This document shows positions 40,020 through 40,560 of a DNA stretch of 64,000 nt, one piece after another. Source of the DNA: Escherichia coli (lineage in GTDB: Bacteria; Pseudomonadota; Gammaproteobacteria; Enterobacterales; Enterobacteriaceae). The stretch is from NCBI RefSeq assembly GCF_003018255.1, contig NZ_CP027440.1; one strand, 5' to 3'. Below the pieces are notes generated by a model, which was not told the DNA's origin, did no database searches, and saw only the letters and a program-made list of their open reading frames with translations. Made by a program: the position numbers and the translations under genes. Position 1 is the stretch's first letter; every line of letters starts with the position of its first letter.

Positions 40020-40238
40020 CTAAAGACTGGCTTTACAGAGTTCAACACGGGTTCTACCTCGTCTTTTGGCGATATACAGAGCTTCATCGGCTATTTGAAT
40101 GAGGCGCTCATAGTCAGGATGACCATTAAACATGGCGGCACCGATGGAAAGTGAGAGGGCAATATCCTCGCCGTTTGCGGCTTTAAAATAATGTCGACCT
40201 TTATGGTTAAACCGCAGGCCAAAATCAACCAAACACAA
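40020..40238 (-). pseudogene. dosC: 3' remnant (~72 codons) of diguanylate cyclase gene dosC
   Basis: Translation ends like a GGDEF-domain C-terminus (SLSIGAAMF ... ADEALYIAKRRGR); only ~540 bp separate dosP from yddW, far too little for a globin-GGDEF protein. Confidence 0.6.
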
Positions 40239-40560
40239 CGTGCGAGATCGACTAACTGCACCATATTCTCCTGAAATATGAAGATATACTGAAAAGAAAT
40301 AAGCGACTTAGGACAGTTTCAATCTACGCTACTGTTCTTGAGAAGAGTATAGCCCATCGTAATTATTTTTCGGTGACAGCGAATATCGTATGTTTTTTCA
40401 TATTCATACATTTTTATTAGGGGATTTATGACTGTTTAACTAAGTGTGGTTAATTGCGTAGTTAATTTGACTTAAGTAAGCATGATTACTAGTGGGATAT
40501 TTCAAGAGGGTAACAAGCCGGGGGGAAAGCACCGGCTTGTTACAAAGTAAGAATGGGAGT

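Follow-up and report, generated by a model that had tools for sequence, protein, structure and literature searches.

DosC and DosP are the textbook pair through which Escherichia coli K-12 controls local c-di-GMP in an oxygen-dependent 'push-pull' manner. The chromosomal E. coli stretch analysed here (64,000 nucleotides of contig NZ_CP027440.1, hereafter the window) carries the order gadB-gadC-digH(yddW)-[dosC remnant]-dosP-ddpXABCDF-osmC, all on the minus strand, and both the list of open reading frames (ORFs) and BLAST against an intact allele indicate that only a remnant of dosC lies next to a full-length dosP. This raises the questions of how the cyclase gene was lost, of whether the phosphodiesterase gene can still be expressed and function, and of whether the lesion is peculiar to this strain. 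The original prediction, made from the sequence of the window, had described dosC as a ~72-codon 3' remnant beside an intact dosP. The description of the two genes holds: the 72-codon ORF at 40020-40238 ends in the DosC C-terminus (...RRGRTRVELCKASL in the ORF list), and dosP is full length (Table 1). We are highly confident that the locus carries a B2-type dosC null allele, with two joins of single origin, in which dosP was kept and which sits in a recombinant patch in this strain.

Table 1. Features of the dosC-dosP region, in window coordinates.
Feature	Coordinates	Strand	Description
dosP	37596..39995	-	Intact, 799 codons; oxygen-sensing c-di-GMP phosphodiesterase
dosC 3' remnant	40020..40184	-	Codons 407-460 and stop; last third of the GGDEF domain, 3' of the deleted GGDEF motif
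DosC middle-domain island	40185..40231	-	44-47 bp, codons ~215/216-229, dosC nt 642/646-687; DosC frame, in frame with the 3' remnant
yddY'	40232..40264	-	Start codon and first 11 codons of the 13-codon yddY
Chimeric yddY'-'dosC ORF	40091..40264	-	57 codons; equals annotated UTI89_C1704
DosC-frame ORF	40020..40238	-	72 codons, TTG start, without Shine-Dalgarno; corresponds to c1919 (CFT073) and ECP_1486 (strain 536)
yddY-digH intergenic region	40265..40560	-	Native, wholly kept; contains CTATACT at 40352-40346
12-bp stem-loop	40510..40543	-	Conserved feature, assigned to the digH 3' end
digH (yddW)	40561..41880	-	Intact upstream neighbour

From 36700 to 43900, the window is identical to the genome of JNE23-011 (NZ_AP045067.1; human, Japan). 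The surroundings of the locus show several other polymorphisms. An IS200C copy between fdnI and yddM in JNE23-011 is absent here (~26291-27090 vs L003 26568-27026, with a 711-bp change of offset). The ddpFDCBAX operon (31363-37516), which adjoins dosP, is itself a presence/absence polymorphism: it is present in this strain, in K-12 and in strain 200164, but neither the sampled B2 strains nor the L002 strain have it, and there osmC adjoins dosP with ~66 bp between them. Further away, at 607-8405, a truncated gp5/VgrG-like pseudogene and an RHS core protein (2426-6586) lie between two copies of the ISAs1 transposase (607-1743 and 7269-8405).

dosC was reduced by two deletions

The original prediction had proposed an alignment to an intact dosCP region to define the deletion endpoints. 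We used BLAST to compare positions 39700-40900 with the intact allele of L002 (NZ_AP017610.1, dosC at 3321-4703) and obtained three collinear pieces (39700-40184 = 3001-3485; 40184-40227 = 4016-4059; 40227-40900 = 4745-5418), the middle one being 44 bp long with E = 7e-17. Three collinear pieces imply two deletions rather than one, and the alignment defines both of them. Deletion A (531 bp) is in frame and removes DosC S230-L406, including the GGDEF motif; its junction, at 40184/40185, joins ...GRHYF229 to K407AANGED.... Deletion B (~686 bp) takes DosC codons 1-215, with the ATG, the weak ribosome-binding site and ~42 nt of leader, as well as the last two codons and the stop of yddY. Its junction lies at 40227-40231, where four ambiguous bases give the island between the two junctions a size of 44-47 bp. 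A single internal deletion had been suspected exactly at junction A (GRHYF / KAANGED); that junction was correctly spotted, whereas deletion B and the 44-bp island had gone unseen. An earlier doubt about the reading frame at 40197-40205 proved unfounded, as the minus strand from 40205 to 40197 reads CAT AAA GGT, i.e., H K G, as in the ORF.

The part derived from dosC consists of the 54 codons and stop at 40020-40184 plus the 14-codon island (DosC 216-229), and nothing else: the 72-aa ORF opens with three codons of yddY/5'-leader sequence in another frame. In total, 1217 bp are absent relative to K-12 dosCP, i.e., yddY codons 12-13 and stop, the dosC leader and ribosome-binding site, and DosC 1-215 and 230-406. 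Microhomology at either junction is at most 1 bp, and both deletions are non-homologous. We also considered a microhomology-mediated deletion via a shared TGATT and rejected it, because its product would exceed the observed one by 2 nt.

The consequences for the protein can be read against the domain limits given by solved DosC fragments (globin 1-170, PDB 4zva/4zvb; middle domain 173-298, 4zvc; GGDEF 297-460, 4zve). The globin sensor domain (1-170) is wholly gone through deletion B, the GGDEF active-site motif (residue 374) falls inside deletion A, and what survives is 14 middle-domain residues and the last 54 residues of the GGDEF domain. The TIGR00254 profile matches the remnant at positions 115-166 of 168, with 32.8 bits for a cut-off of 37.4. 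The DosC start codon and ribosome-binding site are gone, and a TTG without a Shine-Dalgarno sequence is the only place where the DosC frame opens again. PGAP calls the same 165 bp a pseudogene in JNE23-011. The remnant is thus predicted to be non-functional as a diguanylate cyclase, and no such enzyme should be made from it.

Among the 5426 complete genomes of our collection, deletion A alone was found in none, and junction B with a longer dosC 3' part was found in two, HH97 and HH45, both from one study. An order in which deletion B came first and deletion A followed is only suggested by this. The second gap of HH97 and HH45 is smaller and different, with 33 nt of C/G homopolymer filler (L010 ~3750-3790, L011 ~3540-3800), and HH45 has a further poly-C run at junction B. 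These two genomes may be real intermediates or assembly artefacts; the filler looks artefactual.

The upstream region and the yddY start are retained

In K-12 (NC_000913.3), yddY (b4746) is a gene of 13 codons annotated 37 nt upstream of dosC, and its protein has been validated through chromosomal epitope tagging (PMC6001520). Its Shine-Dalgarno sequence AGGAG (40271-40267), its ATG (40264) and codons 1-11 are kept in the window, and deletion B starts in codon 12. An intact 13-codon yddY ORF is not found here: codons 12-13 and the stop are lost, and reading continues to 57 codons, in a frame other than that of DosC, to 40091. The 57-codon ORF is open in all sampled carriers and has non-conservative changes in ST131 and 2022H048; a profile search returned no family match for its product. 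The overlapping 72-codon ORF is annotated as 'hypothetical' or 'diguanylate cyclase' in CFT073 and 536, and c1919 is listed without a GGDEF motif in the CFT073 study (PMC3484386).

According to the original prediction, the deletion would also have removed the promoter context of the operon. The position of the breakpoint does not support this, since the deletion ends in yddY codon 12 and the whole yddY upstream region, CTATACT included, is kept. The ~320-bp AT-rich stretch noted before yddW does exist (GC 0.37 vs 0.49 for the whole window), but it is merely the native yddY-digH intergenic region. The 296 bp from 40265 to the digH stop are fully kept, with a GC of 0.36, and constitute a native spacer, not foreign DNA. 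CTATACT (40352-40346) is the sole -10-like element on the minus strand in this spacer and is sigma-S-like, judged by the general features of sigma-S promoters. A sigma-70 consensus scan found no promoter on the minus strand within the spacer, an Rfam scan of 39900-40700 gave no match, and the literature searched contained no mapped transcription start for dosCP or yddY. In K-12, the 200-500 bp upstream of the yddY start drive a PhoQ-dependent reporter (PMC11429745). Taken together, the position of the -10-like element and the K-12 reporter suggest that CTATACT is the likely yddY-dosC-dosP promoter, and dosP should be expected to be expressed from this retained promoter.

The same upstream region contains a PhoP-box-like direct repeat (GGATTTATGACTGTTTA; 10/12) at 40422-40438 on the plus strand, i.e., in reverse orientation. 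The PhoQ dependence of the K-12 yddY reporter (PMC11429745) gives such a repeat some interest, but we set the match aside as too weak to use (10/12), with non-canonical orientation and spacing.

The region also contains a hairpin with a 12-bp stem (40510-40521 / 40532-40543; dG -19.6 kcal/mol, z = -6.9). A stem-loop had been predicted at 40510-40539: it is real, but the 10-mers quoted for it lie at 40512-40521 and 40532-40541, 2 nt off, and it is unrelated to the deletion. The hairpin lies 17 nt past the stop codon of digH, and K-12, L002, 200164 and B2 strains have it too, with variation that preserves the pairs. It belongs to the 3' end of digH. There is no U-tract after it (the tail is CCUCUUGAAAUA), and a consensus scan did not call an intrinsic terminator.

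dosP is intact and mostly constrained

With its start at 39995, dosP has 799 codons; counted from the historical alternative at 40019 (ORF 37596-40019), the product is 807 aa long. The gene has its own Shine-Dalgarno sequence (AGAGG-N5-ATG). The protein matches the NCBIfam equivalog NF008467 over its full length with 1642 bits for a cut-off of 857, residues 1-799 aligning to profile positions 1-800. It differs from K-12 DosP by 8 substitutions, none of them at the heme ligands or the EAL motif. Both are seen in the translation: the heme-PAS ligands His69/Met87/Arg89 (His77/Met95/Arg97 in the 807-residue numbering) and the EAL motif in ...YGIEALARW....

We followed the fate of dosP in a sample of 11 genomes carrying junction B. 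The gene is intact in eight (JNE23-011, ST131, FDAARGOS_536, UTI89, Nissle 1917, E2348/69, LF82 and DSM 30083) and a pseudogene in three, by a frameshift in CFT073 and by internal stops in 2022H048 and HH45. The decayed copies lie at L012 935-3336 (CFT073), L006 1077-3476 (2022H048) and L011 4004-6403 (HH45). Pairwise dN/dS of dosP ranges from 0.04 to 0.23 among deletion carriers and is 0.09 between two intact-allele strains, with 1-15 differences per class. On these small counts, dosP appears to be mostly under purifying selection after the loss of dosC, with a constraint that is not universal. An intact dosP under purifying selection in most carrier lineages suggests that DosP works without DosC.

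A published phenotype of dosP in a deletion carrier comes from CFT073, where the c1918 deletion has a biofilm defect in glycerol medium (PMC3484386). Since c1918 is frameshifted in CFT073, the protein behind this phenotype would be a truncated one, barring a mistake in the 2002 sequence at the frameshift. Nissle 1917, with the same DigH and GadC proteins as CFT073, has an intact dosP.

A terminator-like hairpin with a T-run (AATGCCGCCGATGGCATT TTTTTCC) lies at 39957-39974 on the minus strand, within dosP codons ~8-15, and is unchanged in six other aligned dosP alleles, from both intact and deleted loci. Transcription that enters dosP could be attenuated there.

The allele is widespread and already known

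We searched the 5426 complete E. coli genomes for a 91-bp probe (40160-40250) that spans both junctions. It was found contiguous in 1047 of them (19.3%), and at 100% identity in 395. The latter include CFT073, UTI89, Nissle 1917, ABU 83972, S88, IHE3034 and APEC O1, as well as LF82, NRG 857C, E2348/69, ATCC 25922, NU14 and the type strain DSM 30083, all of which belong to phylogroup B2. O25b:H4-ST131 matches at 98.9%. In genomes with an intact gene, the match of the probe is confined to the 44-47-bp island. When the full dosC with its leader was used as the query, it was at least 80% covered in 4295 genomes and had some match in 5403. These 5403 genomes have 5409 matches, so second dosC copies are very rare. 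On at least 1000 contigs there is a variant of the 72-aa remnant that falls into the same protein cluster. The lesion had implicitly been read as specific to this strain; the presence of the double junction in 1047/5426 genomes contradicts this. For B2, dosC is normally this short in the lineage, an outcome that the original prediction itself had named as counting against it.

Povolotsky and Hengge (2016; J Bacteriol 198:111) reportedly catalogued the truncation or absence of dosC (yddV, dgcO) in ExPEC/B2 strains. Papers citing this catalogue state that ExPEC and ST131 have a truncated yddV/dosC or lack it (PMC5654935, citing Povolotsky & Hengge 2016) and that DosC is frequently absent (PMC5635171, citing the same work). 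The original prediction expected c-di-GMP to shift toward degradation once the cyclase is lost, which agrees with a hypothesis already published for ExPEC, i.e., lower c-di-GMP, more motility and less curli (PMC5654935, citing Povolotsky & Hengge 2016). The CFT073 screen took the c1919 remnant and the dosP homologue c1918 as strain-specific genes (PMC3484386). Judged from its sequence, the allele of the window is this widespread and already known B2-type dosC (yddV/dgcO) null allele, which is fixed in B2. We did not find its two-deletion architecture, the 44-bp island or the yddY truncation in the literature searched, where the primary catalogue is represented by the papers that cite it. Our additions are this architecture, the yddY truncation with the chimeric ORF, the prevalence of 19%, the recombinant non-B2-like context and the constraint on dosP.

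Origin of the allele in this strain

The sequence from 39267 to 40340 equals the B2 allele, including the junction-linked SNPs at 40035, 40214, 40228 and 40235. The junctions and the linked SNPs are identical everywhere, which implies that the allele arose only once. Rightward from ~40350, the window carries the allele of strains with an intact dosC (L002/200164): digH shows 6/1320 differences from it vs 40/1320 from B2, and the digH-gadC-yddA flank shares 99.2-99.3% identity with intact-dosC strains, against a divergence of ~3% from B2. The flanks are therefore not B2-like, both by the differences in digH and by the presence of the ddp operon; the Clermont markers of phylogroup lie beyond the limits of the window. 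The closest genome on both flanks is that of strain 200164 (Mali), which has an intact dosC. Its DdpA, DdpX, DigH and GadC proteins are identical to those encoded here, and its differences from this strain are confined to 37575-40747. Within the patch, the segment 37517-39266 differs from every sampled allele. The mosaic of a B2 allele with a non-B2 digH-gadC flank and ddp was found in only 2 of the 5426 complete genomes, and the 1201-bp region is matched at 100% in two, JNE23-011 and JNE112863.

A patch of ~3 kb that differs from a closest relative with intact dosC points to homologous recombination rather than new mutation. The deletion was probably imported into the lineage of this strain, as opposed to 200164 having regained dosC. 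The converse, in which the allele was inherited vertically from an ancestor common with B2 and the patch is in 200164, is consistent with differences that are confined to 37575-40747 in a symmetrical pattern without polarity, and with a segment 37517-39266 unlike every sampled allele. Yet the identity of the digH-gadC-yddA flank with intact-dosC strains, its ~3% divergence from B2 and the presence of a ddp operon that the sampled B2 strains lack indicate that the background does not look B2-like, and we regard vertical inheritance as unlikely, if still to be reckoned with. A recent private deletion in this strain, with dosP expression possibly lost along with the promoter, would fit the intact dosC of the nearest relative on both flanks and the mere two complete genomes (JNE23-011 and JNE112863) that match the 1201-bp region in full. 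It is extremely unlikely: more than 1000 genomes have the identical double junction and the SNPs at 40035, 40214, 40228 and 40235 in common, the B2 junctions are the same at base level, and the deletion stops within yddY, sparing the upstream region in full. This reading is already refuted. The chance of an assembly or sequencing artefact is practically nil, as the same sequence occurs in more than 1000 independently finished genomes, Sanger-era references included.

A different kind of explanation is that the remnant became a functional mini-gene, either because the 72-aa degenerate GGDEF fragment or because the 57-aa YddY-fusion peptide gained a role. Both ORFs are annotated in some genomes (UTI89_C1704; hypotheticals in CFT073 and 536), and the 57-aa ORF, open in all sampled carriers, uses a start and a Shine-Dalgarno sequence that are translated in K-12 (PMC6001520). 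However, the 72-aa ORF has a TTG start without Shine-Dalgarno and scores below the cut-off on the GGDEF profile, of which it covers only the final 52 positions, and the accessible part of the CFT073 screen mentions no c1919 phenotype (PMC3484386). The 57-aa ORF is without a family match and has non-conservative changes in ST131 and 2022H048, and divergence is too low for its openness to count. We thus consider a mini-gene very improbable. A broader version, which seems to us quite improbable, would have the yddY start drive a 57-residue peptide in all carriers, with the translation of this peptide, in place of that of DosC, setting the level of dosP. The orphan DosP and this leader would then form a rewired O2-responsive module, kept by selection and able to pass between lineages by recombination, as in this strain.

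The explanation we favour, i.e., a B2-type null allele that arrived by recombination, can be laid out as follows. Deletion B took away the end of yddY, the ribosome-binding site and start codon of dosC, all of the globin domain and a portion of the middle domain. What was left of the middle domain went with the in-frame deletion A of 531 bp, as did two-thirds of the GGDEF domain, its catalytic part. The normal promoter would then, most likely, give a transcript with the 57-codon yddY'-'dosC junk ORF followed by dosP, and the outcome would be an 'orphan' O2-activated phosphodiesterase without a partner cyclase. The allele would have reached this strain in a ~3-kb patch via homologous recombination.

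Comparison with known systems

The dosC allele of B2/ExPEC strains is the same base for base across both junctions (100% over 91 bp in CFT073, UTI89, Nissle 1917 and E2348/69). It is found in the same order, osmC/ddp-dosP-remnant-digH-gadC, and has the same proposed effect (less c-di-GMP, more motility, less curli). The background differs, since this strain has the ddp operon and a non-B2 digH-gadC flank. The yddY-dosC-dosP locus of K-12 has the same upstream region, yddY start, dosP coding sequence and Shine-Dalgarno, digH hairpin and neighbours, but it has the heme-globin sensor and the GGDEF active site (residue 374) that are lost here. Other lesions of dosC or dosP also represent losses of function at the same locus, but with other breakpoints, and they are rare: other partial states of dosC occur in ~60 genomes and 23 genomes have no dosC match (~1.5% in all), vs 19% for the allele described here. 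Examples of such lesions are MSB1_1D, where an IS1 insertion independently interrupts dosC, and strain 98197, where dosP and the dosC 3' half are deleted and ddpX adjoins a dosC 5' fragment (L007 3500-4204); the stops and frameshift in dosP described above are others.

Both the allele and the effect proposed for it have been published before, and our analysis opens no new question in this respect. For annotation, 40020-40238 should be described as a dosC pseudogene fragment, not as a 'diguanylate cyclase', and yddY as truncated. More generally, the whole B2/ExPEC group, and occasional recombinants like this strain, keep only the degrading half of the DosC/DosP pair. Results obtained in K-12 on the regulation of curli, PNAG and PNPase are therefore not directly transferable to these strains.
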